Below are positions 1-64,000 of a stretch of 64,000 nt of DNA, piece by piece (the stretch's first letter is position 1; the number at the start of each line of letters is the position of its first letter). Source of the DNA: an uncultured Alphaproteobacteria bacterium (GTDB taxonomy: Bacteria; Pseudomonadota; Alphaproteobacteria; Rhizobiales; Afifellaceae); NCBI GenBank assembly GCA_963778625.1, contig CAVZVB010000014.1:340849-404848 (forward strand), read 5' to 3'. The notes under the pieces were generated by a model. That model had not been told where the DNA came from. It made no database searches and saw only the letters and a program-made list of their open reading frames with translations. The position numbers and the translations under genes are program-made.

Positions 1-647
1 GCGGCACCCTCACTGACCGCAAGTGCCGTTGGCGATCCGCGCCGAATTCGAGACCACAGCCGCGCCGCCGCGATCCCGGCAAGCACGACGCCGAACCAGG
101 GAAGAACCGGTACGAAGTCGTTCGAGCGCGGCAGCGTCGTGGAAAGCCCGATCCACACGAGCGCGGGATGATCGAAAAGCGGCGTTGCGAGAAAAGACGG
201 CGCGGCGAAGGCGACGACCGCCGCGGCAATCGTCACGGCGACCGGGGCGCGCACGAAAGCGAGCCCGAGCACGCTCGTCACGGCGATGTTGTGGAGGATG
301 CCGAAGAAGATGAAGGTGTCGCGGAACGTGAACCAGGTCACGATTGTGATGGCGGCGGCGCTCGCCGCGACCACGCCGAGCCGGCGCAGAAAGCGCTTCG
401 GCCTGAAGCCGTTCCGCTCGGCAAGGACGAGACTGACGCCGACGATGAAGAGGAAGCTGCCGGCGATCGTTCGCGCGAAGAGCCGCCAGCCGAGGTCGTT
501 CTCCACGTCGGCGGCCAGGAAGCCGAAATAGCGCAGGTCCCAGGAGAAGTGATAGACGACCATCGCCGCGACGGCGGCGCCGCGCGCCGCGTCGATCAAC
601 GGCAGGCGCGGCGCGGGAGACGCGGCGGCGGAGGGCTCCACACTCAT
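1..647 (-). CDS. DUF1624-like acyltransferase-family integral membrane protein (3' end beyond window start)
   Basis: Not in ORF track because it has no stop inside the window. Reverse-strand translation from ATG ~647 gives MSVEPSAAASPAPRLPLIDAARGAAVAAMVVYHFSWDLRYFGFLAADVEND...IFFGILHNIAVTSVLGLAFV, a multi-pass hydrophobic protein with the DUF1624 HFSWDLRYF-type signature. Confidence 0.55.
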   Translation of the reverse strand, partial: MSVEPSAAASPAPRLPLIDAARGAAVAAMVVYHFSWDLRYFGFLAADVENDLGWRLFARTIAGSFLFIVGVSLVLAERNGFRPKRFLRRLGVVAASAAAITIVTWFTFRDTFIFFGILHNIAVTSVLGLAFVRAPVAVTIAAAVVAFAAPSFLATPLFDHPALVWIGLSTTLPRSNDFVPVLPWFGVVLAGIAAARLWSRIRRGSPTALAVSEGA

Positions 648-866
648 TAGCTAACCGTTTCGGCGTGAAGCGCCAGGCCCACGCCAGCAGACACGAGCTC
701 GCTCACTCGCGGAAGCAGTTCTCATTTGCAGAAGCGAATCCTTACGCAGCAGGGTTGCCGGCCCCCTCCTGCCAGCTATAGTCGAGAAAAAGAAGCCTCA
801 TCCGGCCCGCCGAAAACGGCACGCAGATGAGAGAATAACAAAGCGCCAAATAGGCGCAGGGAGGAA

Positions 867-1884
867 ATGATGACGAAAACAGCCAACAGGTTGACGGGGG
901 CGTTTGCCGCATGTGCCGGCGGCGCGCTTGCGCTCGCACTCGCTGCGGCCAGTCCGGCGGCGGCTCAGATCAAGCTCGTGGGCGCAAGCCAGTTCGACGA
1001 GAATCATGCCTTCACGAAGACGATGCGCAAGTTCGAGGAGCTGGTGAGTGCCTGCTACACGGACGAGCCGATCGAGTGGGAGATGCATCTGAACTCCGAG
1101 CTCGGACTGGAGAAGGACTACGTCGCCTACATGAACCAGGGGCTGTCGGTCGACTATGCCGTCGCCTCGCCTGCCCACATGTCCACCTTCTCCAAGATGG
1201 CGCCTTTGATGGACATGCCGTTCCTGTTCAGAGACGAAGACCATTGGCGCAAGGTGCTCGAAGCCGATGGACTGAAGCCGATCGCAGACGACATTCTGAA
1301 GACCGCGGACATCAGGCTCCTCGGCTATGCCGGCGGCGGCACGCGCAACGTCTTCGCCAACTTCCCCATCCACAACATGGAGGAGCTGAAGGGTGTTGCC
1401 GATCCGCATGCAGGGCGCGCCGATCTGGACGCGCGTCTTCGACGCGCTCGGGGCGGCGCCGACGGTGATCGCCTATAACGAGGTCTATAACGCCATCCAG
1501 ACCGGCGTCATCAAGGCTGCCGAGAACGAAGCGGCGGGCGTGGAGCAGATGAAGTTCTACGAGGTCGGCCCCTACCTGTCGCTGACCAAGCACGCCATTA
1601 CCGTGCGCCCGCTCTTCATCTCCAACAAGACCTATCAGCGGCTGCCGCCGAAGCTGCAGCAGTGCATCGATCAGGCCGGTCCGGAAGCCGGCAAATACGG
1701 CCGTGAGATCGAGAGCGGCGAGGACTCCGCCAAGCTCCAGGCCATGGCCGACAAAGGCTGGCTGACGCTGGTGGAGTTCACCGACCGCGACAAGATGCTG
1801 GAGGCGGCCAATCCGGTGCTCAACGCCTATGCCGAGGAGCTCGGCGCGGGCGACGTGCTGAAAGCGATCCAGGCGATCAAGTAG
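867..1884 (+). CDS. dctP: TRAP transporter substrate-binding protein DctP (frameshift ~1400-1480)
   Basis: ORFs 867..1478 and 1393..1884 together give a signal peptide followed by a DctP-family periplasmic binding protein sequence, in two frames with ~80 nt overlap. It is followed by dctQ and dctM. Confidence 0.85.
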
Positions 1885-1997
1885 CAAGCGCTTGTCGCGA
1901 CACGAATGGTCGTCGAGGCTCTATTGAGCCGGAGCCTCGCCCCTCAGTCCGCCCGCCTCGCGGGCGGACTTTTTCGCCTAGGCCACCCGACGCGCCG

Positions 1998-2483
1998 ATG
2001 ACCCGCATCCTCGACATCATCCATCTCGGCCTGAAGCTCGTGCTCGGCGCGCTCGTCGGCGGGCTGATCATCCCCGTCTCGATGCAGGTGCTGTCGCGCT
2101 ACACCGGGCTCATCCCGCGCTACATCTGGACCGAGGAGATCGCCCGCTTCTGCTTCATCTGGATGGTGATGGTCGGCGCCATGTGCGCAGCGCGCGACGG
2201 CAGCGCATTTCGACCTCGACCTTTTGCCACGCTCGCTCAATCCGAGAGGTAGAGGCGGCGAAGCGCATCTTCGTTCACGTCATGATGCTCATCGTCGCCG
2301 GTGATCTTCATCTGGTACGGGTGGGGCCTCATCGAATTCGGCTGGTACCAGACGTCGGAGATATTCAGCCTTCCGATGAACTGGATCTTCGCGGCGTGGC
2401 CGATTTCCGGCGTCGTCATCGCGCTCTTCCTGATCGAGAAGATCGTCAACGAGGTCAGACTCGTGCGCGGCGAAGCGCCATGA
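1998..2483 (+). CDS. dctQ: TRAP transporter small permease DctQ (frameshift ~2200-2300)
   Basis: ORF 1998..2252 (MTRILDIIHLGLKLVLGALVGG..., DctQ N-terminus) and ORF 2301..2483 (DctQ C-terminus). The stop TGA overlaps the dctM ATG (ATGA). Confidence 0.75.
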
Positions 2484-3784
2484 CGCCGACCGTCGTCGCC
2501 ACGATCCTTTTCGGCCTGTTCCTCTTCTTCATCATAATGAGGGTGCCGGTCGCGTTCGCGCTGGCGCTCGCCTGCCTGCCGATCTTCTTCCTGGACGACC
2601 GGCTGACGCCGATCCTGCTCCTGCAGGAGATGTTCAAGTCCTACAACGCCTTCGTGCTCCTCGCCGTGCCGTTCTTCCTGCTCGCCGCCAATTTGATGAA
2701 CGCCGCGGGGATCACCGACCGGCTGATACGCTTGTCGCGCGCGCTGGTCGGCCATCTCCCCGGCGGGCTCGGCCACGTCAACGTCGTCGTCTCGATGTTC
2801 TTCGCCGGCATCTCCGGAAGCTCGACCGCCGACGCGGCAGGCATCGGCTCGCTTCTGATCCCACAGATGAAGAAGGAAGGCTTCACCTCCTCCTTCGCCG
2901 TCGCCGTCACCGCCTGCTCGTCGGTGATGGGGGTCATCATCCCGCCCTCCATCCTGATGATCGTATGGGGCGGGCTGATGTCGGTGTCGATCGGGGGGCT
3001 CTTCCTCGCCGGGGTCATTCCCGGCGTGCTGATCGCCGCGGCGCAGATGGTCACCGTCTACGTCTATGCGCGCCGGCGCGGCATGGGGCTCCACGCGCGC
3101 GCGACGCTGCGCGAGCTCGCGGTCGCCATCGCCGGGTCGATCCTGGCGCTCGCCACACCGGTCATCATCGTCGGCGGCATCGTCGGCGGCTTCTTCACGC
3201 CGACCGAGGCGTCGGTGGTCGCCGCGCTCTATGCGATGCTGCTCGGCTTCGTCGTCTACCGGACGGTCGGGCTGAAGACCCTCGCCCACGTGCTCTACGA
3301 TACCGGCCGCTTCGCCGGCATCGCGCTTTTCTGCATCGGCACGGCGAGCGCCTTCGGCTGGCTGCTCGCCTATTTCAAAGTGCCGGCGGCTCTGGTCGCC
3401 TACGTGCAGGCGATGAATCTCGGCGTCACCGAGATGGGGCTAGCGGTCGCCATCGCCTTCCTCGTCATCGGCTGCTTCATCGACGCGATCCCGGCGATCA
3501 TCATTCTCGGCACGGTGCTGTGGCCGGTGACGCAGGCGGTCGGCATGCATCCGATCCATTTCGCCATCATCGGGGTGATCAGTCTCGCCTTCGGGCTGGT
3601 GACACCACCTTATGGGCTGTGCCTCCTGATCTCGTGCGCGATCGGCAAGATCTCGGTGCGTGAAGCGATGCGCGACGTAGCCATCATCCTCGCGCCGATG
3701 CTGGCGATCCTGGCGCTCGTGATCTTCTTCCCGTCAGTCTCGCTCTGGCTGCCGCGCCTCCTGATGCCGCAGTTCGTGAACTGA
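2480..3784 (+). CDS. dctM: TRAP transporter large permease DctM
   Basis: Internal ATG of ORF 2183..3784 at 2480 (MTPTVVATILFGLFLFFIIMRVPVAFALALA...). This is a DctM 12-TM permease and appears intact. Confidence 0.9.
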   Translation: MTPTVVATILFGLFLFFIIMRVPVAFALALACLPIFFLDDRLTPILLLQEMFKSYNAFVLLAVPFFLLAANLMNAAGITDRLIRLSRALVGHLPGGLGHVNVVVSMFFAGISGSSTADAAGIGSLLIPQMKKEGFTSSFAVAVTACSSVMGVIIPPSILMIVWGGLMSVSIGGLFLAGVIPGVLIAAAQMVTVYVYARRRGMGLHARATLRELAVAIAGSILALATPVIIVGGIVGGFFTPTEASVVAALYAMLLGFVVYRTVGLKTLAHVLYDTGRFAGIALFCIGTASAFGWLLAYFKVPAALVAYVQAMNLGVTEMGLAVAIAFLVIGCFIDAIPAIIILGTVLWPVTQAVGMHPIHFAIIGVISLAFGLVTPPYGLCLLISCAIGKISVREAMRDVAIILAPMLAILALVIFFPSVSLWLPRLLMPQFVN

Positions 3785-10574: not shown

Positions 10575-11658
10575 TCACTGCGCTGAGACAGGGGGACGAG
10601 CTGCGGCATGCAGGGCGCCTTCGGCGCGGCCGTAGCGGGCCCGCACCTCGCGGAACGAGATAAGCCGCCGCTCGGCCTCGTCCCATAACGCCAGGCGCAC
10701 GCAGCCAAGGCTCTCGGCCAGCGTCAGCCTGCTGACGCTGCGCAGCTCCGGATTGTCGCGAAGCACCCGGCCCAAACGGTAGAACGGGATGCGGCTGCGA
10801 CAGATGATGGACATGGTGCACGCCGATATTGGCAGTGAACCAGCGCAGCACCGCGGGGAGGTCATAGTGGGAGCTGCCATGCAGCGCCGTCTCGTGGAGA
10901 TTCCAGGTCCGCGCGCCCTCCCACGCCGTCTCCTCGAACTGATGCTGGACGTAGAAGAGCCAGACCCCGATCGAGGCGGCGAGCAGCGTGATCGGCAAAT
11001 GCACCAGCAGGAACGGACCCACTCCGAGTGCCCATATGAGCATCGCAACGAAGAGAGCGATCCCGGCATTCGTCGCCATGGTGCTGACCCAGGGCAGCCA
11101 GCCGCTGCGCATCAGCCCAAGCGGAATTCGGTGCTGGAGCACGAAGAGATAGGTGGGGGCGATGCCGAACATCACCAGCGGATGCCGGTAGACACGATAT
11201 CCGAACCGCCGCAACGGCGAGCGCGACAGATATTCGCTCACGGTCCAGGTTTCCACGTCGCCGATCCCGCGTCGGTCGAGATTGCCGGATGTCGCGTGGT
11301 GGATCGCATGTGAGCGGCGCCAGCAGTCGTAAGGCGTCAGCGTGAAGACACCGAAGACGCGTCCGACCCAGTCGTTGGCGGCGCGCGCACGGAAGAAGGC
11401 GCCGTGACCGCAATCATGCTGGATCATGAAGAGGCGAACGAGGAGGCCAGCGGCAGGGACGGCGAGAAGAAGACAGAGCCAGACATATCCGAAATGCACG
11501 GATGCCCACATCAAGGCCCAGATGCCGACGAGCGGCGCCGCCGTGATGACGATCTCCACGATGCTGCGAATGTCGTTCGGCTCGCGGTATTGTGCGAGGC
11601 GCGCGGTCAGCGAGCGCGCGTCAACTTTCTCGCCTTGAGAAGGGCTGGCATTCGGCAT
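10575..11658 (-). CDS. membrane fatty-acid desaturase (frameshift ~10800)
   Basis: His boxes HDCGH, HAIHH and HHVHH in ORF 10567..11760. The conserved C-terminus SRIPFYRLGRVLRDNPELRSVSRLTLAESLGCVRLALWDE is found in a different frame (ORF 10575..11069). Confidence 0.8.
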
Positions 11659-11964: not shown

Positions 11965-13356
11965 TTAGAGCTCGACCGCTTCGCCGGTCGAAGGCATCTC
12001 GACGTGCGTCGACGTGAGCTTGGCCGCGAAGCGCTGCATCGTCTCCTCCTCGCCGTGGACGAGGAAGGTGCGGCTTGCGTGCGTTTGCCTCTGCCAGGCG
12101 AGCAGCTCCGCCTGGTCGGCGTGGGCGGAGAAACCGTTGATCGTGTGGATGCGGGCTTTGACCGGGATGCGCTCGCCGAAGATGCTCACCTCTTTCGCGC
12201 CGTCGATGATCTGCCGGGCGAGCGTGCCCTTCGCGGCAAAGCCGACGAAGATGACGCTTGAATCGTGGCGCCAGAGATTGTGCTTCAGGTGATGGCGCAC
12301 GCGCCCGCCGGTACACATGCCCGAGCCGGCCATGATGATGGCGCCGCCGGTGATCCTGTTCAGCGCGATCGAACTCGGCTGTCTCGCGCACGAAGTGGAG
12401 CCCGGGCAGGCCGAAGGGGTCGCGTCCCTCGCGGAAGAGCGCCATGGTCTCCTAGTCGTAGCACTCCGGATGGCGCCTGAAAATCTCGGTCGCCGAAATC
12501 GCCATCGGCGAATCGAGGAACACCTGGATCGATCGCGACAGCGCGTGCTTCTCGGTGCCCTCGCGCAGATAATAGAGAAGCTCCTGCGCGCGCTCCAGAG
12601 CGAAGGTCGGGATGATGACGTTGCCGCCGCGCCGAGAAGGCGTCGCCGACCGCGGCGTAGAGCTCCTCGACCGACGGCGGCAGCGGCTTGTGCAGCCGGT
12701 CGCCGTAGGTCGATCTCCATCACGACCACGTCGCTTCGCGGCGGGGTCGCGGGATCGCGCAGGATCGGCCGGCCGGAATTCCCGAGATCGCCGGAGAACA
12801 GCACGCTGCGGTGCCGATCGCCTTCCTGAAGCTCGAGGAAGACGCTCGCCGAGCCGAGGATGTGGCCGGCATCGAGAAAGGTGGCGCGAATCCCGGCGGC
12901 GAGATCGAGCGGCTTGCCGTAGTCCGCGTTGCGTCCGAAGAAATCGAACGTTCCGAGCGCATCGACGACGGAATAGAGCGGCTCGCCGTCGGCCTTCCGG
13001 CGGCCGTGCCGCGCCGCCTTCCGCCATCGATGCCGCGAATCCTCCTCCTGCAGGTTGGCGGCGTCGAGAAGCACCAGCCTCGCAAGCTCGCGCGAGGCGG
13101 CGGTGGTGATGATCTCGCCGTGGAAGCCTCGCTTCACGAGCAGCGGAAGGCGCCCGCAATGGTCGAAATGCGCATGCGTCAGAAGCACGATGTCGATGGC
13201 CGCGGCGTCGAAGCCGAAGGGCTCTGCGTTGTCCTCCTCGATCTCGCGGCCGCCCTGATAGAGACCGCAATCGACAAGGATCTTGCGGCCGGCACACTCG
13301 ACCAGGTGGCACGAGCCGGTGACGCCGCGATCGGCGCCGTGGAAGGACAATTTCAC
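11965..13356 (-). pseudogene. MBL-fold beta-CASP RNA-metabolising hydrolase, disrupted (>=3 frameshifts plus in-frame TAG)
   Basis: The N-terminus (MKLSFHGADRGVTGSCHLVECAGRKILVDCGLYQGG...HAHFDHCGRLP) and C-terminus (NRITGGAIIMAGSGMCTGGRVRHHLKHNLW...) lie in one frame. The middle segment GNVIIPTFALERAQELLYYLREG...HPECYD lies in another frame and ends at a TAG at ~12449-12451. The sequence continues ETMALFREGRDPFGLPGLHFVRETAE in ORF 11945..12445. Confidence 0.8.
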
Positions 13357-13428: not shown

Positions 13429-14412
13429 TCATGCCTCGCGCGCGCTTGGATAAAGCGGCGTGCCGCTGGCGCTGTGCCAGCTCAAGATGCCGTCCCAGAT
13501 CTCCTCGCCGTCTCCGCGAACCAGAACAGCTCGCGGTCCTCCAGGTCGATGACGCCTTCGTCGACGAGAAATCCGATATCGACGGCGCGCTGCCAGATAG
13601 CTCTCGCCGACGAGCACGACGGGGATCGGCTCGATCTTGCGCGTCTGGATCAGCGTCAGCACCTCGAACAGCTCGTCGAAGGTGCCGTAGCCGCCGGGAA
13701 AAGCGACAAGCGCCCTGGCGCGCAGCAGGAAGTGCAGCTTGCGCAGCGCGAAATAGTGGAAGTTGAAGCAAGCTCCGGCGTGACGTAGGGGTTCGGATAT
13801 TGCTCGTGCGGCAGGCGGATATTCAAGCCGACGGACTTGGCGCCGAGGTCGAAGGCGCCGCGATTGGCAGCCTCCATGATGCCGGGGCCGCCGCCGGTCA
13901 TGATGACGATCTGATCCGTCGCCGCGGCTCGCGATTGGCCTCGCTGACGAGGCGCCCGAATTCGCGCGCCACATCGTAATAGCGGCTCTTCGCAAGGATG
14001 CGCTCGGCGACGGCGAGCCTATAGGCGCGCTCTGCGTTGCCCGGATCGGCGGCCAGCGCGGCGCTGCAGCGCCTCGACCTTGCGCCGTGCCGCCATCGGC
14101 TCGCAGATGCGGGTCGAGCCAAAGACGACGATGGTATGCTGGATGCCGTGCTCGGCAAGCAGCAGCTCGGCCTTCAGATAATCCATCTGCAGGCGCACGC
14201 CGCGCACGTCATCGCGGTGCAGGAAGTCCACGTCCTCTTCCGCCAGACGGTAGTTCGGCGACGCGAGGATCGCCTGCGACATGCGCGAGCGCGTCCGGGT
14301 CTTCCTCGACCGTCTTCGGCTGCTGCCACGGCAGCGGCTCGCGCCGCTCGCGCGGATGCGCGGGCTTCGGCACGCCCGGCTCGCGGATCGATCGCCGGGC
14401 TCTTCGTGTTCA
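13429..14412 (-). CDS. LOG-family (TIGR00730) Rossmann-fold nucleotide-binding protein, multiply frameshifted
   Basis: Conserved pieces are spread over four frames: [135 protein letters not shown], and [55 protein letters not shown]. Confidence 0.75.
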
Positions 14413-14534
14413 TCGTCTCCCTGCCTTTGCTGCGCAACGACGGGCTTGGCTATTAGCCTTTTCCGGGTGCGGATTGAATGCCTGCCTTCGGCGAGCTCGT
14501 TGGCGAGCGACGGGATTCTGAGGATGGCGAGCGG

Positions 14535-15990
14535 ATGACCACGACGCGCCGATCGCAATCCAAGCGCACCAGCGGACTGCCGGCGCCGCTTCTTGCCGCG
14601 CTCTACCTCGCGGCGGTTGCGGTGCCGCTGGCGCTTGCCGGCTTCTCCGGCATCGAATCGGCCGGGCCGTGGAGCGAGGCCGCGACGGCATAGGCATCGT
14701 CGGCACCGTCATGCTGTTCCTGCAGCTGGTGAGCAGCGGCCGGTTCGAGAGCCTCTCCGGCCGCATCGGCATCGACGTCACGATGGCGTTCCACAAATGG
14801 GCGGCGCGGCTGACGGTCGTCGCCATCCTCTTGCATCCGCTCCTCTTCGTCGCTCCGATCGATCTCCAGCAGCCCGGCGCGCCCTTCAACCATCTCGCCG
14901 CGATGCTCTCCGCGCCGCGCTATCTGAGCGGCGTCGTGGCCCTCGTGCTCGTCGTCACCGTCGTCCTCCTCGCCACGCTCCGGGACCGGCTGCCGGTTCC
15001 CTACGAGGCGTGGCGCGCAAGCCACGGACTGATGGCGCTTGCCGCCGCCTGGGCGACGATGCAGCACCTCGGCGCCGTCGGCACCTATTCAAGCGACCGC
15101 TGGCTTGATCGCCTACTGGCTCATCCTTGCGCTCTGCGCGACTGCTGCAGCGCTTGGCGTCTACACGATCCGCGCATGGCGCATGCGCAGTCAGGGCTGG
15201 CGCATCACCGACCGCCGGCAGATAGCCGAGCACCTTTGGAAGATCACGGTGACGGGCGCCGGCGACGAGCGCCTTGACTTCAGACCTGGCCAGTTCGCAT
15301 GGCTGGCTTTCGCGCCGCGGCGGTTCCCGCTCTTCGATCATCCCTTCTCGATCGCCTCGGCCTCAGGCGATGGCGGAACGCTCAGCTTCATCATCCGCGA
15401 GGCCGGCGACTTCACCGGGAAGATCGGCTCCCTGCCGATCGGGACCGCGGTCGGCATCGACGCCCCGCACGGCAGCTTCACCCTCGACGGGATCGATGCA
15501 GACGCCGTCCTGCTCGTCGCCGGCGGCGTCGGCATCGCAGCCGTCGTCGGCCTCCTCGGCGCGCTCGCCGAGAACGGCGATCACGGCCGGTCCGCCTCAT
15601 CTGCGGCGCGCGCGAGCCGCAATCGCTGATCGCACCGGCTGAGCTTCAGCCGGCCCTCGACCGGCTCGACGCGCGCATCTTCTTCCTCGTCGACACGCCG
15701 TCGGAGGGATGGGCGCACGGCATCGGGCCGATCTCGAAAGCGCGGCTGGCGGAGGCGCTTGCCGGCCTCGACCCGCAGCGGACGGCCGCCATGATCTGCG
15801 GTCCCGGCCCTATGATGACCGCCGTCACCGACGACCTGCACGCGCTCGGCGTGCCATATCGCAATATCCGCTACGAGCGCTTCGACTACGCCGGCGGCCG
15901 CGCTCCGGCAAGGATCGCCGCGTCATGGCGAGTTTTTGGGCGATGGCGCTGGCGATTGTCGCGGCCGGCGCCGCCTTCGCGCTGCGCTGA
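14535..15990 (+). CDS. ferric-reductase-like transmembrane domain + FAD/NAD(P)-binding oxidoreductase (multiply frameshifted)
   Basis: Ferric_reduct-type TM helices with His (AARLTVVAILLHPLLF...), an FAD-binding segment (RPGQFAWLAFAPRRFPLFDHPFSIASAS) and an NAD-binding segment (LLVAGGVGIAAVVGLLG ... ICGPGPMMTAVTDDLHALGVPYRNIRYERF). These are split over ORFs 14478, 14669, 15039 and 15299. Confidence 0.7.
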
Positions 15991-16362
15991 GCGTCACCTC
16001 TCGAGCAGAAACGCGATCAGGTCCGCGCGCATGGCCGCGATCAGGCGCGTGGTGCTCCGGCAGGAAGGCGGCGAGCCACGCCGCTTTCTCCTCCGCCGTT
16101 CCGCCGTCGATGCGGCGCGCGATGCGGGCGGCGGAGGCGTGGCATCGCGCGCAGGCGCTCGCATAGGCGGCCTCGCCGCCTACCGGATCGCCTTCCGCCA
16201 TCGCTTCATTCCGAGCGCTCCAAGAAGCGCCAAGAGAACCAGAACACGGCTCATCAGCACGCTGCCTTCGATCATCTGACAATGGTGATCGTCTCCGCCG
16301 CCCTCGTGATCGCGGTATAGAGCCAGCGGTCGCGCGTGTCCCGGAAGGCGAAGCTCTCGTCG
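15923..16362 (-). CDS. possible small c-type cytochrome (CxxCH), frameshifted; weak
   Basis: A signal-like N-terminus MSRVLVLLALLGALG (ORF 16180..16383) and a CARCH haem-binding motif in ORF 15923..16282. It overlaps the 3' end of the helicase gene by ~90 nt, which lowers confidence. Confidence 0.3.
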
Positions 16363-37152: not shown

Positions 37153-38547
<1,395 letters not shown>

Positions 38548-38746: not shown

Positions 38747-38755
38747 AAGCGCAAA

Positions 38756-50196: not shown

Positions 50197-50415
50197 ATGG
50201 CAAAGCTGAGCAAGAGGCTTGAAGATGAACTCTTCCGGGAAAATCCCGAGATGAGGGAGAAGGGCTTGCGCCCCGAAATTGTCTGGGTACCCGATACCGA
50301 GGCGCCCGGATTTCGAGAAGGGCTGAACAGACAGCTCGCGGCCATCCGAAACAGCCCTGGCGAAAAGGAACTCCTGGACTGGATGGAAAAGGTCGCCGAT
50401 TGGCCGACCGATTGA
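50197..50415 (+). CDS. DUF3018-family antitoxin (MazE-like)
   Basis: MAKLSKRLEDELFRENPEMREKGLRPEIVWVPDTEAPGFREGLNRQLAAIRNSPGEKELLDWMEKVADWPTD. It overlaps the downstream toxin gene. Confidence 0.7.
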   Translation: MAKLSKRLEDELFRENPEMREKGLRPEIVWVPDTEAPGFREGLNRQLAAIRNSPGEKELLDWMEKVADWPTD

Positions 50416-50753
50416 AGCGCGGTGACGTTCTGATCGTCTCGGCGCCGGGCGAGTATGGAAAGCCCCGACCTTCGGTGGTCGTGCAGGCGAATTTTCAGGA
50501 ACCCATCGAAAGCGTCGTCATCTGTCTGATGACAACCGATCTTATTGAGCCCGGCCCGGTCAGGCCGAACGTTCTGCCATCACACGAGAATGGCCTCCGG
50601 GCTGAATTGCAGGTCATGGTCGACAAGGTGATGGCGGTCCATCTCAGTCGGTGCGGCTCGAAGGTCGGCACCTTGTCGCCGTCGGACATGCAAGCCGTCG
50701 ATCAGGCGCTTGGCATCGTCCTGGGGCTCACCGTTCGGTCTCGCATCAATTGA
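50400..50753 (+). CDS. type II toxin PemK/MazF family endoribonuclease
   Basis: LKRGDVLIVSAPGEYGKPRPSVVVQANFQE...SVVICLMTTDL...LSPSDMQAVDQALGIVLGL. Start is TTG/GTG-type. Confidence 0.8.
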   Translation: MADRLKRGDVLIVSAPGEYGKPRPSVVVQANFQEPIESVVICLMTTDLIEPGPVRPNVLPSHENGLRAELQVMVDKVMAVHLSRCGSKVGTLSPSDMQAVDQALGIVLGLTVRSRIN

Positions 50754-50754
50754 G

Positions 50755-50872
50755 GGGACCTCGTGCCCGGCGGTGCGCGCGCCCGTCTCGTAGGCGCTCG
50801 CCAAGGCGCGGCAGAACCGCTCCGGGCTCCGGTCCGGATGCCCCTGGATTATAACGATATGCTTCGCCATGC
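50755..50872 (-). pseudogene. 5' remnant (~38 codons) of flavodoxin-like NAD(P)H-dependent oxidoreductase gene, truncated at the mazF stop
   Basis: Reverse translation gives MAKHIVIIQGHPDRSPERFCRALASAYETGARTAGHEV, a typical Flavodoxin_2/NAD(P)H-quinone-oxidoreductase N-terminus. The reading frame then runs into the antisense of mazF. Confidence 0.5.
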
Positions 50873-51876: not shown

Positions 51877-53729
51877 ATGTTCCAGAGCTATATCGACAGC
51901 GCCGATCCGACCAAGGGCGCCGAGCGCGCGAAAGCGCTCCGCGCCAAGCTGAAAGAAATGCAGCTCGACGGCTTCATCGTGCCGCGCGCCGACGAGCACC
52001 AGGGCGAGTATGTGCCGAAGGCGTCGGAGCGCCTGGCCTGGCTCACCGGCTTCACCGGCTCGGCCGGAACCGCGGTCGTGCTCGCGGACAGGGCAGCGAT
52101 CTTCGTCGACGGGCGCTATACGCTGCAGGTGCCCGAGCAGGTCGACACGGAAGTCTTCACGCCGGTCGCGGTGATGGAGACGTCGGTCGCCGAGTGGCTG
52201 AAGACGACCGTCGCGACGGGACAGCGCATCGGCTTCGACCCCTGGCTGATGACCCGCACGCAGGTGCGCCAGATCAGGAAGGGCTTGGAGGCTGCCGGCG
52301 CGGAGCTCGTCGCCGTCGAGGAGAACCCGATCGACGCGGTGTGGGACAACAGGCCCGGACCGCCACTTGCCGCAGTCTTCGAGCAGCCCGAAGCGCTCGC
52401 CGGCAAGCCGGTCGAAGAGAAGATCGCCGAGGCGAGCAAGATCGTCGCTGAGAAGGACGCCGACGCCGCAATCTTGACGGACCCGGCATCGATCGCCTGG
52501 CTCTTCAACATCCGCGGCAACGACATTGCGCATACGCCCTCGCCGCTCGCCTTCGCCGCAATCCACGCCGACGGCCGGCCGGAGCTCTTCATCGACGGGC
52601 GCAAGCTGTCGAACGCCATGCGTGACCGGCTGGAGGGCTTCGCCGACGTACGTGAAGCCCGCGATTTCTCCGCGCGACTGACGGCTCTTGGGGGCGAGAA
52701 CCGGAAGGTGCTCGTCGACCCTCAGGGATCGGCGGAGGCCGTCGCGCGGCTCGTCGAAGATGGTGGTGGCACGATCGTTGAGTCTGCCGATCCGGTGGCG
52801 CTGCCGAAGGCGAAGAAGAATCAGGCGGAGCTTCAAGGCGCGCGCGCGGCGCATGTCCGCGACGGCGTCGCCATGGCGCGCTTCCTTCGCTTCGTCGAGA
52901 CGAGCGCGCCAGGGTCGCTTACCGAAATCGATGCGGCGAAGGCGCTCGAAACCTTTCGCGCCGAGACTGCCGCGGAAGTCCGGCACGCCGCTCGCCGATC
53001 TCGCTTTCGATGCGATCTCGTCGACCGGCCCGAACGGCGCCATCAACCACTATCGCGTCACCGAGCGAACCAACCGCCGGCTCGAAGAGGGCGATCTCTA
53101 TCTGATCGATTCCGGCGGCCAATATCAGGACGGCACCACAGACGTCACGCGAACCGTGCCGATCGGCCAGCCTTCGCGCGCGAGGCTCGACCTTTTCCGC
53201 GACCGTTTCACCCGCGTGCTTCGCGGCCACATCGCGATCGCGATCGCGCGCTTCCCGAAGGGGACGACCGGAGCGCAACTCGATCCGTTCGCGCGCCACG
53301 CGCTCTGGCAGGCCGGCCTCGACTTCGACCACGGCACCGGCCACGGCGTCGGCTCCTATCTTTCCGTGCACGAGGGGCCGCAGCGGATCGCCAAGGCCGG
53401 CCACGCGCCGCTTGAGCCGGGCATGATCATCTCCAACGAGCCCGGTTACTACCGCGCCGGCGATTTCGGCATCCGCATCGAGAACCTCGTCGTCGTGCGC
53501 GAGGCGGAGCCGGTGCCGGGCGGCGACCGGCCGATGCACTCCTTCGAGACGATCACGCTCAGCCCCATCGACCGAAGGCTGATCGATCCGCTCCTGATGA
53601 TCGCCGGCGGAGATTGCCTGGCTCGACGCGTATCATGCGCGCGTCTTCGGCGCGCTCTCAGGCTGGCCGACGCTCTCAAGCGAAGACCGCGCCTGGCTTG
53701 AAGCGGCGTGCCGGCCGATCGTCGGCTAG
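51877..53729 (+). CDS. pepP: aminopeptidase P family protein (M24) (two frameshifts)
   Basis: Creatinase_N-like N-terminus (ORF 51877..53415), M24 core GTPLADLAFDAISSTGPNGAINHYRV...DSGGQYQDGTTDVTRT...HGTGHGVGSYLSVHEGP...ISNEPGYY (ORF 52688..53701), and C-terminus ...WLEAACRPIVG* in a third frame. Confidence 0.85.
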
Positions 53730-54641
53730 GCGAACAGCTCCGTGGCGGCGGCCGCGCCGCGGGTGACGCTGACCAGCCAGCGCGCCACGCGGCGCGCCGG
53801 GACGCTCAGTTCCTCCGCGTCGGCATAGAGAAGATAGTAGGCGCATCCGCTCTCATCGGCCGTGCCGAACGGCGCGGCGAGATCGCCATCGGCGAGCCAG
53901 GCGTCGACCAGGGGGCGCCGGCCGATCGCCACGCCCAGCCCCTCCGATGCGGCGCGCAGAATCTGCTCCGCGCCGTCGAGTGCCAGCGCGCCGTCAAGCG
54001 ACGGCGGCTCGAGCCCGTGCGCTTGCGCCCACTCGCGCCATTCCTCTCGGTACGAGGCTTCGACGATCAAACGGGCGGTGCCGAGCGCCGTCTGCGGATC
54101 CATGCCCTCAGAGAGCAGCCCCGGGCGGCAGACCGGAAACGCCTGCTCGTCGAACAGATGGTGCGCGGCGTAACCGGGCCAGTGGCCCTTGCCATAGCGG
54201 ATCGCCAAGTCGATCTGCTCGCGCCTCAGGTCGACGACCCGGCCGGTCGGCACCATCTGCACGTTCACCTCGGGCAGCGCGGCCTCCAGCTGCGCCAGCC
54301 GTGGAATCAGCCAAAGCGTGGCGAGCGACGTCGTCAGCGTGAGCGAGACGCGGCAGCAGGGTCCGCCAAGCGCTTCGGTGGCGCGGCGGATGCGCGCGAA
54401 GGCCGGGTCGATCTCCTCGAAATAGGTCTGTCCGGCGAGCGTCAGCCTGACGGCGTTTCCGGCGCGATCGAAGAGCCGCACGCCGAGATAGTCCTCAAGC
54501 TTGCGGACCTGATGGCTGATCGCCGATTTCGGAAAGGCCGAGCGCTTCGGCGGCCTCGCGAAAGCGGCCGAAGCGGGCCGCCGCGTGGAAGCTCCGCAGC
54601 GCGTGGAGCGGCGGAAGCTGGGAAAGCCGCTCTTCCGACAT
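53726..54641 (-). CDS. LysR-family transcriptional regulator (frameshift in HTH region)
   Basis: N-terminus MSEERLSQLPPLHALRSFHAAARFGRFREAAEAL (HTH) is out of frame with the LysR_substrate body in ORF 53726..54481. Confidence 0.8.
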
Positions 54642-55551: not shown

Positions 55552-57807
<2,256 letters not shown>

Positions 57808-57874
57808 CTATGGCCGCGCCGGGCGGCGTGGTCAAGGCGCCGCTTCAGACGGTAGTGTCTCAGTTTGAAAACTC

Positions 57875-57900
57875 TTCGCTAACCGGGTTCGCTAACCGGG
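57875..57900. repeat. perfect tandem direct repeat 2 x TTCGCTAACCGGG upstream of ligA, at the left edge of the low-GC islet
   Basis: Seen directly: CTCTTCGCTAACCGGGTTCGCTAACCGGGAGGGTCC. Confidence 0.6.
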
Positions 57901-58103
57901 AGGGTCCAGGCCGGCGCGGCGTATGCCGGCCCGCACGCCCATGAGAAATGGTGTCATGTTGGCACGCGTCGCCGGCTGTGCTGGCGTGGCCGGGATCGCT
58001 CGAATCGGTACCCTTGATGGCTTGGAATCCCACGATGAATCCTGACCTGAAGTCGTCATGAGGGACATCGCCTTTTCTAGTCACGGCAGCACCTCCTGTT
58101 TCG

Positions 58104-58532
58104 TTAGCCGTCCGGTGTAATTGTCGGCCACATCCCGACGATGTTCTGACAGTTCGCCTCGACCTCTTTAATACGCGCCGCCGTCGCCTTCACGCCTGGA
58201 TAGAAGCTGCGGGAGCCGATATCCAAAACACTGCAATACGGTCCCCACACAGTTGACGCACCGGCGATGTGAGTTCGGCACCACTCTTGGACCATCGCTG
58301 AGACGATGCCGGCGGTGTCCTTGTTCAGATGGAAGATCGTGGGGAAATGCAGCTTCATCGCCCCTATCAGTTCCCCAGTCTTTCCCTCGCCCCGCAGGAG
58401 GATTTCCGGGCGAACGCTAATCTCAACGTTGTGGATGGTGTGCTTCGGCGGAGCATGTGCTCCCAAAGAGGGATCGCCGCCCTTCAAATCAATGTCGTCA
58501 AGCATGAGGAGGAAGGATTTCGAGGGCATCAA
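58104..58532 (-). CDS. hypothetical protein (islet ORF-B, 131-142 aa)
   Basis: MMPSKSFLLMLDDIDLKGGDPSLGAHAPPKHTIHNVEISVRPEILLRGEGKTGELIGAMKLHFPTIFHLNKD... No recognisable family. It overlaps ORF-A by 35 nt in another frame and may be one ~233-aa gene with a frameshift. Confidence 0.4.
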   Translation of the reverse strand: MMPSKSFLLMLDDIDLKGGDPSLGAHAPPKHTIHNVEISVRPEILLRGEGKTGELIGAMKLHFPTIFHLNKDTAGIVSAMVQEWCRTHIAGASTVWGPYCSVLDIGSRSFYPGVKATAARIKEVEANCQNIVGMWPTITPDG

Positions 58533-58803
58533 TATTCGATGCGATGCGCCGCTGCGTGCCGATCTTCTCCGGCTTCATCTGGCTCAAAATGTTAATCTGA
58601 TTTTCAACAACACCAATATTCTCAAGATTTGATACAATGCATGACGAAATCGCTTCTGCGGCTTCTTTGTAATACATGCCCTTATAATCTGTTGGATACT
58701 TCTGATCACGCAATATTTGTCGTTGACGAGGGGCTTTAGCCGTAGTAAATTCAGCAAGCTTATTTATGCTGATGCGCGGAGTTGTGAGTGTTTTCTTCGC
58801 CAT
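58498..58803 (-). CDS. hypothetical protein (islet ORF-A, ~101 aa, ~40% GC)
   Basis: Internal start MAKKTLTTPRISINKLAEFTTAKAPRQRQILRDQKYPTDYKGMYYKEAAEAISSCIVSNLENIGVVENQ... preceded by a GGGGG RBS. Confidence 0.4.
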   Translation of the reverse strand: MAKKTLTTPRISINKLAEFTTAKAPRQRQILRDQKYPTDYKGMYYKEAAEAISSCIVSNLENIGVVENQINILSQMKPEKIGTQRRIASNIDALEILPPHA

Positions 58804-58826
58804 CGCTAACCCCCAAGGTGTGCGCC

Positions 58827-59066
58827 ATGGACGAGCATTTTGCCGCAATGCCCATCTCCAATTCAACCTGCCTTTGTGTAGGAGGGATCACGCACGTAGA
58901 GGCGGAAGTAGCCAGGTCAGATGGTCACGATGTGGACGGAGCGGGCTACTATCTCTTTCTTGCGCGAGCTGATGCGCTTCAAAGCCCGATTCGACTTCTG
59001 GCCAAGTTTCTTTCGCCGTCAGAAGCGGAAAGCTTCGCTCGTATGATTGAATATCGAACGGCCTAA
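58827..59066 (+). CDS. hypothetical small protein (islet ORF-C, ~79 aa)
   Basis: MDEHFAAMPISNSTCLCVGGITHVEAEVARSDGHDVDGAGYYLFLARADALQSPIRLLAKFLSPSEAESFARMIEYRTA. Divergent from ORF-A. No family recognised. Confidence 0.35.
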   Translation: MDEHFAAMPISNSTCLCVGGITHVEAEVARSDGHDVDGAGYYLFLARADALQSPIRLLAKFLSPSEAESFARMIEYRTA

Positions 59067-59089
59067 GCCGCGATCTTCTTCTTGTAGGT

Positions 59090-59853
59090 CTTCGCCGACG
59101 TCGAACGGTCCCCAGCCGAAGCGATAGCCGGTAAAGAGCACCCAGGTCGCCTCCAGCGCCCGCTCGGCAAGATTGGACAGAACCGCGATCATGATCAGCG
59201 CGGCAACGGCCGGGTAGGCGGCGACCTTTACGAAAGCGCCGACCGGATTGGCGTCCTTCAGGCTGAACGGCCGGCGGTTCTCAGGCTTCAGAGATTCCGG
59301 CAGCACGAAATAGCCGAAGAGGCAGTTGGCGAGCGACAGACAGGCCGCGACGGCAAAGGGGACGCGCGGGCCGATCTCGCCGAGGACTCCCCCGATCACA
59401 GGCCCCGCGATGAAGCCGACGCCGAAAGCGGCGCCGATCAGGCCGAAATTCTGCGCGCGCTTCTCCGGCGGGCTGATGTCGGCGATGTAGGCGGAAGACG
59501 CGGTGATGGTCGCTCCGAACGTGCCGGAGAGGGCGCGCGCCAGCACCAGCCACCAAAGGTTCGGCGCGAGCGAGAGGATCACGTAATCGACCCCGAGCGC
59601 CGCGAGCGAGATCAGGATGACCGGCCGCCGTCCGAAGCGGTCGGAGAGCGAGCCGAGCGCCGGGCTCGCGATGAAGTTCGTGAGATAGTAGACGCCGACG
59701 ATGATGCCGTAGAAGGTCGATGCCTCGGAGACCCTGCCGCCGAGCATCGACTCGACGAGCTTCGGCATGATCGGAAAGACGATGCCGATCCCCACCATGT
59801 CGATGAAGACGGTCACGACGATCACCGCGAGGCTGGCTTGGCGGAGTCTCCAC
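59090..59853 (-). pseudogene. MFS tetA-like efflux transporter, 3'-truncated (N-terminal ~6 TM only)
   Basis: ...VIVVTVFIDMVGIGIVFPIMPKL...SLSDRFGRRPVILISL...TGYRFGWGPFDVG then runs into islet-derived sequence (EDLQEEDRGLGRSIFNHTSEAFRF*) in place of TM7-12. The probable ATG at 59853 is in another frame (frameshift). Confidence 0.75.
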
Positions 59854-60048
59854 TTTGGTGCCGTCGCTTGTTAATGACGCCGCGCGCAGAGCGAACTTCG
59901 CCCTCTTCTACGCCGAGCCTTAGCGGCCAAACCGGTCAGATCAAGGCAATCGCCACTTGCATTTGAAGCAACATATAGTTGTATGCGTGCTTGGCTCGCG
60001 CGGAAACCATCTCCGTCGACGCCGTTCGAGAAATCGGGAGGTATCGCC

Positions 60049-60783
60049 ATGCCAAGCCAAAAGACGATCTTTGCCGCCTTCAACCAAGGCGCTGTTCCGA
60101 CGGTCGCCTGCGTCAACAAGGCCAAAGTGGCGCTCGGCGTCGATTTCAGCAAGCTGGTCGCGGCCCTGCAGAAGTTCCTGGACGATTGCTTCGTGCCCGT
60201 GTGGGGCGCACCAGCCAAGCTGATCGTGGCAAAAAGCGTTCCGGTCGGCGCATGGGCGATGCTTTTTCTCGACGATGCCGACGCAGCCAACGCGCTCGGC
60301 TATCACGATTTGACCAAGGACGGCCTTCCCCTTTCAAAGGTCTTCGTCAAGACAACGCTGGACGATGGGCAGAAGGTCAGCGTCACCGCCTGTCACGAGC
60401 TCGCCGAAATGATGATCGACCCGGCGATCAACCTCTGGGCCGAAGCGCCCAACAGATCGTTCTACGCTTACGAGATGTCGGACGCTGTCGAGGAAGAAGA
60501 ATTCGAGATCAACGGGATCGCGATGAGCGACTTTGTCTATCCCGCCTATTTCGAGGGATTCCGCACACCCAATTCGACGCAATTCGACTATCTCAAAAAG
60601 ATCAGCCGCCCCTTCCAGATCCTGCCTGGCGGCTATTCGATCATCAGCAAGAACGGCAAGATATCGCAGAAATTCGGCTCCGCCGCCAAGCGCAAGCGGT
60701 TCGCGAAGGAAGACCGTCGGCAGCACCGGAGCTCCTTCCGTCCGGAGAAGGTGCATCTTAAGAAGAAGAGCAAGGTTCGCTGA
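60049..60783 (+). CDS. hypothetical protein, 245 aa, basic C-terminal tail, lower GC (~57%)
   Basis: MPSQKTIFAAFNQGAVPTVACVNKAKVALGVDFSKLVAALQKFLDDCFVPVWGAP...VSVTACHELAEMMIDPAINLW...AAKRKRFAKEDRRQHRSSFRPEKVHLKKKSKVR. No family recognised. Confidence 0.5.
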   Translation: MPSQKTIFAAFNQGAVPTVACVNKAKVALGVDFSKLVAALQKFLDDCFVPVWGAPAKLIVAKSVPVGAWAMLFLDDADAANALGYHDLTKDGLPLSKVFVKTTLDDGQKVSVTACHELAEMMIDPAINLWAEAPNRSFYAYEMSDAVEEEEFEINGIAMSDFVYPAYFEGFRTPNSTQFDYLKKISRPFQILPGGYSIISKNGKISQKFGSAAKRKRFAKEDRRQHRSSFRPEKVHLKKKSKVR

Positions 60784-60806
60784 GAGGCGAGCCTTCGCTA
60801 CGAAGA

Positions 60807-62469
60807 CTACCCTGCGATCAGCCGCTCCGCGGCGGCGCGGGCCTCGTCGGAGATCGTCTCGCCGGCAAGCATGCGGGCGATCTCCTCGCGCCGTTCGCGG
60901 CCGGCCACCGGCTCGACCTCGGTCGCGACGCGCTTGCCGCGGTCGACCGCCGACTTGGTGATGAGGAAATGCGCGTCGGCTTGCGCCGCGACCTGCGGCG
61001 CATGCGTGACGGAGAGCACCTGCACGCGCTCCGCAAGCCGCGCGAGCCGCCGCCCGATCGCCTCGGCGACGGCGCCGCCGGCGCCGGCGTCGATCTCGTC
61101 GAAGACAAGCGTCGGCGCCGAGCCGCGATCCGCGAGCGCCACCTTCAGCGCCAGAAGGAAGCGCGAGAGCTCGCCGCCCGACGCGACCTTCATCAGCGGG
61201 CCCGGCTCGGTGCCGGGATTGGTGCGCACATGGAAGGCGATGCGGTCGAGCCCTTCGGGCGAGATTGTCGCCGCATCCGTCTCGCGCGCCACGATGAAGC
61301 GCGCCGCCTCAAGCTTCAGCGCCGGCAGCTCGGCGTTGACGGCGACCTCAAGCGCCTTCGCCGCCTCGCCGCGCCGCTTCGAGAGCGTCAGCGCCGCCTT
61401 GGCGTAGGCGGCAAGCGGCTGCGGCGAGCGAGGCTTCAAGCGCCTTCAGCCGCTCGCCGCCGACGTCGATGTCGGCGAGGCGCGCGGAGAACTCCGCCGC
61501 GACCGCCGGAAGGTCGTCGACCGCGACCTGATGCTTGCGGCCGGCGGCGCGCAGCGCAAAGAGCCGCTCCTCGCTGCGCTCCAATTCGCCCTGATCGAAT
61601 TCGCAGGCGCGAATCGCGTCGTCGAGCCCGCGGCGCGCCTCCTCCAGATTGTCGAGCGCCGCGCCGAGCGCGGCAACCGTCGGCTCGAGCAAGCCGGGAA
61701 GCTCGCCTGACTTCCGCTCAAGCCGCCGCGCGAGGCCGACGAAGTCGGGAATCGGCGAGGCGCTTCCGCCGAGGATCTCGTGCGCCTCGTTCAGGTCGTC
61801 GCGATCCTCTCCGCCCGCATCAGGAACTGCCGGCGCTCGGCAAGCGCCGCCTCCTCGCCGAGCTCCGGCGCAAGCGCCTCAAGCTCCTCCACCGAGGCGC
61901 GGAGATAGTCGGCCTCGCGGGCGGCGGAATCGATCTTGGCGCGGAGCTCGACCGCCTCCGCCTCAAGCGCCCGCAGGGCGCGATAGCGCGCGGCGACGTC
62001 TTCCGCGTCAGGCTCAAGCCGCCGAAGGCATCGAGCAGGCGGCGATGCTCCTCGGCGCCGACCAGCGCGCGCTCGTCGTGCTGGCCGTGGATCTCGACGA
62101 GCCGCGCGCCGATCGCCCGCATCAGCGAGACGCCGCAGGGCTGGTCGTTGACGAAGGCGCGGGTCTTGCCGTCGGCGGTCTGCACGCGGCGCAGGATGAG
62201 CGCCCCTCGGCGGCGATGCCGTTCTCGGCGAGCAGCGCGAAGACCGGATGGCCGGGTTCAGGCTCGAACACCGCCGTCACCTGGCCGCGCTCGGCGCCGG
62301 CGCGCACCAGCGATGCGTCGCCGCGCGAGCCGAGCGCCAGCGCAAGCGCGTCGAGCAGGATCGATTTCCCGGCGCCGGTCTCGCCGGTCAGCACGGTCAG
62401 CCCGCCGCCGAACTCGATCGCGAGCCGGTCGATGAGGACGATGTCCTGAACGGTGAGACTCGCCAGCAT
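60807..62469 (-). CDS. recN: DNA repair protein RecN (multiply frameshifted)
   Basis: MLASLTVQDIVLIDRLAIEFGGGLTVLTGETGAGKSILLDALALALG (ORF 62122..62469). Coiled-coil middle in ORFs 61820 and 61348. C-terminus LMKVASGGELSRFLLALKVAL...LVFDEIDAGAGGAVAEAIG...QVLSVTHAPQVAA (ORF 60807..61439). Confidence 0.85.
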
Positions 62470-62482
62470 GGCGGGCCGAAGT

Positions 62483-63340
62483 CTAGCCGCGGCCGAATGC
62501 CCGGGAAATCCAGGAGCCCTTGTTCTCCTCAGGAACGACGCCGGCTTCGCCGAGGATCTTGTAGGCGTCCTTATACCAATCGCTGTCCGGGAAATTGTGC
62601 CCGAGCACGGCGGCGGCGGTCTGCGCGTCCTGCACGAGGCCGAGCGCGAGATAGCTCTCCGTCAGCCGCTCCAGCGCCTCCTCGACATGCCGCGTCGTCT
62701 GGTAGTCCTCGACCACCGACTTGAAGCGGTTCACGGCGGCGAGGTATTCGTGGCGCTCCTGGTAGTAGCGGCCGATCTGCATCTCTTTGCCGGCAAGCTG
62801 ATCGCGCGCCACCTCCATCTTGTGGCGCGCATCGTCGGCATATTCAGACTCGGGATATTTCTGCACGATGACGTTCATCGCATCCATCGCCTTGTTGGCG
62901 ATGTCCTGGTCGCGCGTCACGTCGGGGATCTGGCGGAAATAGGATTCGCCGATCAGGTACTGCGCGTAGGCGGCGTCGTCGCTTGCCGGGAAGAGCGTCA
63001 CGTAGCGCTGCGCGTCGTTGATCGCGTCCTGGTATTTCGCGCGGCGGAAGTTCAGGTAGGCCGACATCAGCATCGCCTTCCGCGCGTAGTCGGAATAGGG
63101 ATGCTCCTTGTCGATCTCGTCGAACTTCTTCGTGGCCTGGCGCGCGTCGCCGGCGTCGAGGTTGGCGAGCGCCTGATTGTAGAGAACGTCGGGCGGATCG
63201 ACGTTGACCTCCGTCTCCGGCTTCTTGCCGCCGCAGGCGGCAAGGAAAAGCGCGACGGCCGGCACGAGCATCACGCGCCGCGACGCGGCGAGCACCTCAA
63301 GGCGGCGGAAATCCGAGCGGGCATGCGGTCCAAGTTCCAC
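62483..63340 (-). CDS. bamD: outer membrane protein assembly factor BamD
   Basis: Lipoprotein signal ...LFLAACGG and TPR-like YfiO body (YNQALANLDAGDARQATKKFDEIDKEHPYSDYARKAMLMSAYLNF...). Intact. The start may be the internal M at ~63274. Confidence 0.85.
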   Translation of the reverse strand: MELGPHARSDFRRLEVLAASRRVMLVPAVALFLAACGGKKPETEVNVDPPDVLYNQALANLDAGDARQATKKFDEIDKEHPYSDYARKAMLMSAYLNFRRAKYQDAINDAQRYVTLFPASDDAAYAQYLIGESYFRQIPDVTRDQDIANKAMDAMNVIVQKYPESEYADDARHKMEVARDQLAGKEMQIGRYYQERHEYLAAVNRFKSVVEDYQTTRHVEEALERLTESYLALGLVQDAQTAAAVLGHNFPDSDWYKDAYKILGEAGVVPEENKGSWISRAFGRG

Positions 63341-63522
63341 TAGACGCGCGCTCGTCCTATAGCGGACGCGGCGCGGCTGTCAAAGCCGTTCACCACCGAA
63401 TGATGGCCGGGCTGTGGCTAAACTGCGGCGTTTGAGGCTGGATCAGAGCACTTCCGGGGCGAAGACCGGCGCCGCCAGCCCCTGCGCCGAGCTCCGCGTG
63501 GCCCTCCTGACGGGTCTCGCGC

Positions 63523-64000
63523 TCAGCCGGCTCGGAAACGGGCGACCAGGCGTCGCGGCGGCGAAAGCAGGGCGGAAAGCGCCAGCGCGTTCAGCTTGTG
63601 GCCGCCCTTGTGCGAGCGATAGAGGCCGAGAATCGGGGCGCCGGCCAACGCCAGGTCGCCGATCGTGTCGAGCACCTTGTGGCGCACGAACTCGTCGGGG
63701 AAGCGCAGCCCCTCCGGGTTGACCACCGCGCCGTCGCCGATGACGACGGAATTCTCAAGCGAGGAGCCGAGCGCAAAGCCCGCCGCCCAGAGCTTTTCCA
63801 CGTCGCGCATATAGCCGTAGGTGCGGGCGCGCGGCGATCTCCTGGCGGAAAGTTCTTCGGCGTGAGGTCGATCCCAAGCGCCTGGCGGCCGACGACCGCG
63901 CAGTCGTAGTCGATGCTGACCTCAAGGCGGAAGCGTCCAAGCGGGCGGAACTCGGCGAAGGCGGCGCCAAGCTCGACGCGGACCGGCTTGTCGACGCGGA
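63523..64000 (-). CDS. lpxC: UDP-3-O-acyl-N-acetylglucosamine deacetylase, C-terminal part (frameshifted; continues beyond window)
   Basis: YMRDVEKLWAAGFALGSSLENSVVIGDGAVVNPEGLRFPDEFVRHKVLDTIGDLALAGAPILGLYRSHKGGHKLNALALSAL (ORF 63523..63810). The upstream segment VELGAAFAEFRPLGRFRLEVSIDYDC is in another frame. Confidence 0.75.

Follow-up and report, generated by a model that had tools for sequence, protein, structure and literature searches.

Conserved genes in long-read assemblies are known to be fragmented by small insertions and deletions (indels) of 1–2 nucleotides (nt), a defect expressed by the IDEEL score. Such damage accompanies weak consensus support, full-length products are recovered by frameshift-aware alignment, and the fragments enter protein databases (PMC9262707, PMC8103633). 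The same traits are found in the DNA described here, a 64-kb stretch with 63–71% G+C from an uncultured alphaproteobacterium (hereafter the window, meaning the whole stretch analyzed), where reading frames are disrupted by about 84 indels distributed over 26 of approximately 50 genes. On the strength of sequence comparison, these frameshifts are very probably consensus errors of a long-read-only metagenome assembly and not mutations of the organism, because the extra single bases are shared by no related genome. A preliminary description of the window had likewise attributed its split genes to assembly indels and not to biology, and this view is upheld by (i) the private nature of the indels, (ii) the full-length products obtained after correction, (iii) a non-biological indel spectrum, and (iv) the same signature in sister assemblies. 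The window differs from the described cases in that the literature stresses homopolymer indels, whereas its own events are mostly non-homopolymer insertions gathered in blocks of about 2 kb. The artifact belongs to a familiar type but has a rather unusual error profile; biologically it is nothing new.

Two groups of natural systems resemble the window in part. Mycobacterium leprae and Sodalis glossinidius also have a large share of their genes interrupted, but the window shows no deletional bias, holds a single nonsense mutation, and has kept its conservation; moreover, its essential genes are broken and its breaks are not shared with relatives. In prfB, dnaX, and the IS3 transposases, a change of frame is needed for the full product, as it would be here, yet the window offers no slippery site or conserved shift and has many shifts per gene.

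Segmentation of the window by codon-usage log-odds yielded many abutting coding segments on the same strand with a change of frame across them. Where close relatives are absent, the continuity of profile coordinates over the fragments served as the test; where they exist, tblastn was combined with a purpose-written frameshift-aware protein-to-DNA alignment against orthologs from syntenic relatives. An initial frameshift-aware run over all open reading frames (ORFs) was too noisy because antisense ORFs of 67% G+C DNA align too, and it was replaced by curated references and DNA alignments. By itself, tblastn masked compensating pairs (in the MBL gene and sspB) and was misled by errors in the relatives themselves, namely in the desaturase gene of L007, recN–ligA of L005, and hflKC of L009 (such labels denote individual relatives). 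Segmentation, profile coordinates, and ortholog alignment together found all 23 of the previously named split genes to be affected, and bamD, a DUF4169 gene, and an acyltransferase gene are to be added to them. For the YHYH-domain gene, the split is seen in the segmentation and in a partial Pfam match, with no support from orthologs. Fragmentation goes beyond the two to five pieces per gene first reported, as some genes lie in up to 13. Among the split genes, only ligA and lpxC are clearly essential according to what is known from E. coli; fumC, hflKC, and miaA, presented earlier as essential, are not clearly so. The genes reported as intact (folA, thyA, ilvC, vapBC, and mazEF) are indeed unbroken. 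Frameshift-aware alignment against orthologs detected no frameshift in leuA, PhzF, the Na+/H+ exchanger, ilvC, the PIF1-type helicase, ilvH, ilvB, folA, thyA, the RHH gene, the AsmA-family gene, ClC, SDR, PrmA, and the DUF3828 gene.

The syntenic relatives share 82–92% nucleotide identity with the window, and up to 13 of them were compared. The closest are all metagenome-assembled genomes (MAGs) of uncultured Alphaproteobacteria from the Microflora Danica (MFD) project with Flye-style contig names; the more distant ones comprise Illumina-based MAGs (a Propylenella sp. and a Hyphomicrobiales bacterium) and the isolate Afifella marina. The frame-breaking indels are private to the window, a status supported by 12–13 of 13 relatives in its central region. 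Over 18 kb of shared alignments, the window carries 49 private frame-breaking indels (41 insertions and 8 deletions) and one private in-frame indel. Over the same span, frame-breaking indels number 0 and 2 in the Illumina-based relatives and 3–15 in the other MFD MAGs. Once corrected, the proteins are full length and align end to end with 74–96% identity to their orthologs (mostly 83–96%), compared with 66–98% for the intact genes. Corrected serB, for example, matched relatives in 531 metagenome contigs, and nearly all of its 220 residues aligned in each of the 80 loci kept. Two dense tiles show only a slight rise in private substitutions, and the smallest number (2) is found in a third tile with 9 private insertions.

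The other MFD assemblies bear the same marks. Different genes are broken in each copy when one species has been assembled independently from two samples (98.8–99.6% identity), and in every resolvable case among such pairs the broken copy has one extra non-homopolymer base. Broken genes in the MFD relatives include ilvB in L006, pepP, recN, and ftsZ in L004, uvrD in L005, and the MBL gene in L001. Indels of the relatives' own have also created chimeric ORFs: hflK–hflC fusions of 743 and 728 aa (L009:9668–11896 and L003:21621–end) and a recN–ligA fusion of 1267 aa (L005:5235–9038). Elsewhere among the relatives, hflK and hflC mostly form distinct genes in different frames, as they do in the Illumina MAG L015 and the isolate L016. 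Some of the relatives with chimeric ORFs are species representatives in the genome collection searched.

The indel spectrum was read from pairwise blastn gaps against the relatives and from tiled MAFFT alignments, with about 46 kb alignable. It consists of 67 single-base insertions, 20 single-base deletions, 7 two-base insertions, and 3 two-base deletions, so that 97 of 125 private indels are 1–2 nt long. Sixty-four percent of the inserted bases have no identical neighbor, compared with 52% expected under random insertion, and runs of at least four bases account for only one of the 67 insertions (a T4 run at 29585). The G/C runs that had been called abundant are scarce, since runs of at least four hold only 2.1% of the aligned bases, and the inspection of homopolymers that had been advised revealed no association of the indels with them.

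Events are also far from evenly spread. Counts per 1-kb bin give a dispersion index of 6.7 (p = 8e-29), with events packed in blocks of about 2 kb, which is at odds with the roughly uniform per-base rate assumed at first. Breakage is therefore set by the position of a gene and not by its length. Short genes had been thought intact on account of their size, but the long AsmA-family (1220 aa), ilvB (590 aa), ClC (604 aa), and leuA (521 aa) genes are unbroken, while the 0.9-kb miaA and serB carry 12 frameshifts each. Thirteen events fall in 12.3–14.4 kb and about 10 in 25.5–27.2 kb; the extremes of the distribution are the following two blocks.

27900–29900 (no strand): densest error block, with about 32 private 1–2-nt indels in 2 kb, nearly all of them insertions
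38600–42860 (no strand): clean contrast block, 4.2 kb without a private frame-breaking indel

The clean block encloses the 3.7-kb AsmA-family gene (38964–42623, −), which has no frame break at all. Its 1220-aa product has no NCBIfam match, and the L003 ortholog carries Pfam AsmA.

A small subset of the insertions has a motif of its own. GANTC is the methylation target of CcrM in Alphaproteobacteria, and in the window it has become GANTTC at three sites (12373, 52976, and 54527). At 12373, in the MBL gene, the window reads GAGTTC where relatives have GANTC, and an extra T stands at this very site in L001, which is of a different species and from a different sample. The desaturase gene of L007 shows the same GANTC to GANTTC change. 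Among 68 insertions there are three such changes where 0.15 would be expected, a count not attained in any of 3000 simulations, although the pattern was spotted post hoc. Only this specific change is enriched; insertions overall show no significant preference for GANTC or its surroundings (3 of 67 against 0.96 expected, p = 0.07). The recurrent change suggests a motif-specific and possibly methylation-related error, and the subset, approximately 4% of events, is compatible with a technical origin. According to the available text of two papers, modified bases disturb Nanopore basecalling (PMC11610573, PMC11610603). The errors at methylated motifs treated there are akin to the window's GANTC hits, which recur at one site in a second species; in so far as that text covers them, they are base errors and mismatches, whereas the window has a duplicated T.

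The MFD catalog is built from Nanopore reads alone (ENA PRJEB58634), assembled with Flye 2.9.2 and polished with one round of Medaka, and its authors examined the reduced coding density of some lower-coverage MAGs as a possible effect of sequencing error (PMC12313526). R10.4 assemblies, according to the same group, are near-finished only at about 40x coverage (PMC9262707). The most likely source of the window is a Nanopore MAG like those of its closest relatives, representing an uncultured Hyphomicrobiales-like alphaproteobacterium. Its assembly would then have been performed by Flye --meta with one Medaka round and no use of short reads, as in the Microflora Danica MAGs. A poorly supported consensus would retain spurious bases, mostly as single insertions; each extra base shifts the frame, and gene callers therefore cut a conserved gene into fragments. 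The dense blocks may correspond to stretches of low or conflicting read support, and the preferred explanation combines locally poor read support with a consensus step prone to keep extra bases. The GANTC to GANTTC subset could reflect basecalling trouble at CcrM-methylated sites.

Several observations weigh against the attribution to consensus error. Raw Nanopore reads are not insertion-only, and the profile of the window, with 67 insertions against 20 deletions and located outside homopolymers, is unlike the textbook Nanopore one. Membership of the window in the MFD project is itself inferred, and so is the preferred explanation of the insertion bias and the blocks. The MBL gene contains an in-frame TAG (12454–12456, −) that arose by substitution from the TCG seen in four relatives. 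It has two further private substitutions within 10 nt and is the sole premature stop found that was made by substitution. Finally, no independent contig of the same species turned up in the Joint Genome Institute (JGI) metagenomes scanned with frame-corrected serB. The best match there is only 83% identical, so it gives no direct confirmation of intact alleles. A JGI contig that shares the EAL cluster with the window was set aside as another species (92% identity in the EAL gene and 78% in miaA); it adds one intact miaA.

If the indels were real, the lineage would be undergoing massive pseudogenization, for instance as a recently host-restricted symbiont or pathogen. Such decay would agree with the interruption of about half of the genes, the nonsense substitution in the MBL gene, and one true gene remnant, the truncated Flavodoxin_2 gene at the mazEF locus. 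Bacterial pseudogene decay has a deletional bias, however, and neutral decay brings many substitutions and nonsense codons. The window has the reverse of that bias, approximately 84 frameshifts for one premature stop, and 49 private frame-breaking indels for one in frame. Its excess of substitutions is not consistent, the identity of the corrected genes equals that of the intact ones, and the catalytic motifs are intact. Nor are essential genes spared, as ligA and lpxC are broken, and two 0.9-kb genes with 12 events each stand beside 4 kb with zero. The breaking of different genes in sister MFD assemblies also speaks against decay, which on balance is very unlikely. An expansion of insertion sequences was not noticed among the ORFs scanned, in a scan of the window that was not exhaustive. 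Should the extra bases nonetheless be real, they would have to represent block-wise bursts of single-base insertions from a local insertion mutator, in genes subject to normal selection up to very recent times; this scenario is more improbable still, and we know of no insertion-biased mode of genome decay described in bacteria. Restoration of the products in vivo by programmed ribosomal frameshifting or transcriptional slippage can practically be dismissed. The conserved corrected products are in keeping with recoding without being specific to it, while the shift sites lack base runs or slippery sequences, no ortholog shares the shifts, and up to 12 shifts per 0.9-kb gene go far past known recoding.

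The nature of the error admits alternatives as well. The error model of the preliminary description, uniform and classic homopolymer-length miscalls, can cite one deletion within C4 (33641) and one insertion within T4 (29585). It fits poorly with the excess of singleton inserted bases over the random expectation and with the one insertion of 67 in a run of at least four; uniformity, in turn, is contradicted by the dispersion index, and at about 1.5 events per kb an intact 3.7-kb AsmA gene would have a probability of about 0.004. As a full explanation, such miscalls are hardly credible. Another variant of artifact, less probable than not by a clear margin but the most plausible of these alternatives, holds that reads of co-occurring strains or species were collapsed and that the polisher wrote both alleles in tandem at variable sites. 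Related species do co-occur in the samples (four MFD05442, two MFD02416, and two MFD05684 bins), and strain collapse would account for both the insertion-only profile and the clustering. The inserted base equals the alternative allele of the flanking column in 23 of 37 cases (14.8 expected), a weak signal from a test that is biased by the gap placement of the aligner, and in which between-species alleles are only a proxy for strain alleles. The junctions, moreover, lie beside third codon positions in 25 of 38 cases, which is the chance value of 2/3. Allele merging at strain-variable sites is thus unsupported, and locally poor read support with retention of extra bases is preferred.

Within the affected blocks, gene coordinates, pseudogene calls, and metabolic inferences are unreliable. 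The predicted proteins of the window, evident gene fragments among them, are recorded from a single contig of 482,644 bp at NCBI and ENA. Fragments thus already exist as separate proteins in public collections; examples are an EAL piece of 177 aa and a LysR piece of 251 aa, the latter called as a protein and listed beside an ortholog of 304 aa. Homopolymer-aware polishing or checks would not remove these errors because they are insertion-biased, non-homopolymer, block-wise, and include a GANTC subset; frameshift-aware annotation or re-polishing is needed instead. The affected genes and their breaks are as follows.

2–641 (−): HGSNAT/acyltransferase-3-like gene, cut by the window edge; a possible extra base at 44 relative to two relatives of one species, a weak case
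867–1881 (+): dctP, a TRAP solute-binding protein; one frameshift near 1391, with Pfam DctP profile positions 6–137 in ORF 831–1475 and 137–285 in ORF 1390–1881
1989–2480 (+): dctQ; two frameshifts between 2183 and 2301 by profile and segmentation, with profile positions 2–48 and 78–131 in two ORFs and the middle in another frame
10578–11658 (−): fatty-acid desaturase; one private extra C at 10797, directly past the histidine box (L007 has a different insertion 86 nt further on)
11968–13356 (−): MBL/beta-CASP hydrolase; three frameshifts from extra bases at 12373, 12632, and 12714/12715, in addition to the in-frame TAG; 95% identity after correction
13447–14413 (−): LOG-family (lysine-decarboxylase-like) gene; seven frameshifts at 14377, 14277, 14063, 13918, 13772, 13596, and 13505, supported by 4 of 4 spanning relatives
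14690–16276 (+): ferric-reductase-like gene without a close ortholog; at least two frameshifts, near 15090–15160 and 15590–15640, with transmembrane, FAD, and NAD domains split over three overlapping ORFs (Pfam)
18187–19367 (−): YHYH-domain gene; probably one frameshift near 18880–18915
23148–25110 (+): PAS-GGDEF-EAL gene, 654 aa; one extra T at 24101, supported by 10 of 10 relatives
25287–27683 (+): MHYT-GGDEF-EAL gene, 801 aa; nine single-base insertions at 25562, 25613, 25690, 26236, 26624, 27016, 27108, 27119, and 27220, each private relative to 12–13 relatives
27774–28662 (−): miaA; twelve frameshifts, in the densest block; end-to-end alignment after correction with the P-loop GPTASGKS kept
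28710–29606 (+): serB; twelve frameshifts, in the densest block; HAD motifs DxDST and GDGANDAG kept after correction
29678–31444 (−): degP/htrA-like protease with Trypsin_2 and two PDZ domains; five frameshifts at 31181, about 30885, 30689, 30222, and 29891, by three references
31693–32819 (−): hflC; one to three events, a robust frameshift at 32514/32516 and single-base deletions at 31729 and 31740 near the 3′ end
32807–33940 (−): hflK; two events, the C4-run deletion at 33641 and an insertion at 32856
36555–37049 (+): sspB; two frameshifts, a deletion at 36688 and an insertion at 36784
37153–38544 (+): fumC; two frameshifts, TG inserted at 37635 and G inserted at 38198; 94% identity after correction
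38551–38743 (+): DUF4169 gene; one extra A at 38576, supported by 9 of 9 relatives
42687–44092 (−): FAD-linked oxidase (GlcD-like); one base missing at 42872
47772–50142 (+): uvrD; two to three events, with extra bases at 49916–49920 and about 50001 and a doubtful event at codon 14
51877–53726 (+): pepP, Xaa-Pro aminopeptidase; two events, an extra A at 52976 (GAGTC to GAAGTC) and an extra A at 53600
53729–54641 (−): LysR-type regulator; extra T at 54527 (GATTC to GATTTC)
55611–57756 (−): ligA; one extra base at about 56306–56310
60814–62469 (−): recN; four to five frameshifts at 61287, 61417, 61798, 62019, and 62202, with the profile covered consecutively by five fragments (1–90, 90–159, 160–227, 247–373, and 361–561)
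62486–63324 (−): bamD; two extra bases (63273 and 63293) within the first 20 or so codons
63446–64000 (−): 3′ part of lpxC, cut by the window edge; four extra bases (63486, 63562, 63832, and 63852), in at least two pieces with profile positions 130–178 and then 182–273

The ligA gene is only 66% identical to its species-B ortholog, with 21 codon indels, while the neighboring genes reach 92–95%; this could be due to a divergent allele or to errors in the reference copy.

The window also differs from its relatives in gene content. The dctPQM genes form a TRAP transporter operon (867–3781, +) between the acyltransferase-like gene and leuA; the species-A genomes L001 and L002 lack this operon at the corresponding place. 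The ferric-reductase-like and YHYH-domain genes (14433–16276 and 17581–19520) stand where the relatives have an NmrA-HxlR-cupin-GST block; here the gene content itself differs, and the alignment has not failed. At 57800–60800 lies a stretch without counterpart in the relatives, and its third-position G+C is lower. It includes a Tet(A/B/C)-family-like MFS efflux gene (59022–59870, −) that stops at position 249 of the 382 in the profile and is either truncated or frameshifted. At the toxin–antitoxin locus, mazE (50197–50415) and mazF (50400–50753; Pfam PemK 1–109 of 109) replace the 197-aa Flavodoxin_2 gene of the relatives, of which only the first 42 codons persist (50745–50870, −). Unlike the indel-broken genes, this piece is a genuine gene remnant.

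Directly upstream of sspB, which encodes the adaptor for SsrA-tagged proteins, lies a full-length two-piece (permuted) alphaproteobacterial transfer-messenger RNA (36135–36502, +; Rfam RF01849, 313.6 bits) with the tag peptide ANDNYAPVALAA. It has one private single-base deletion inside, at 36419.

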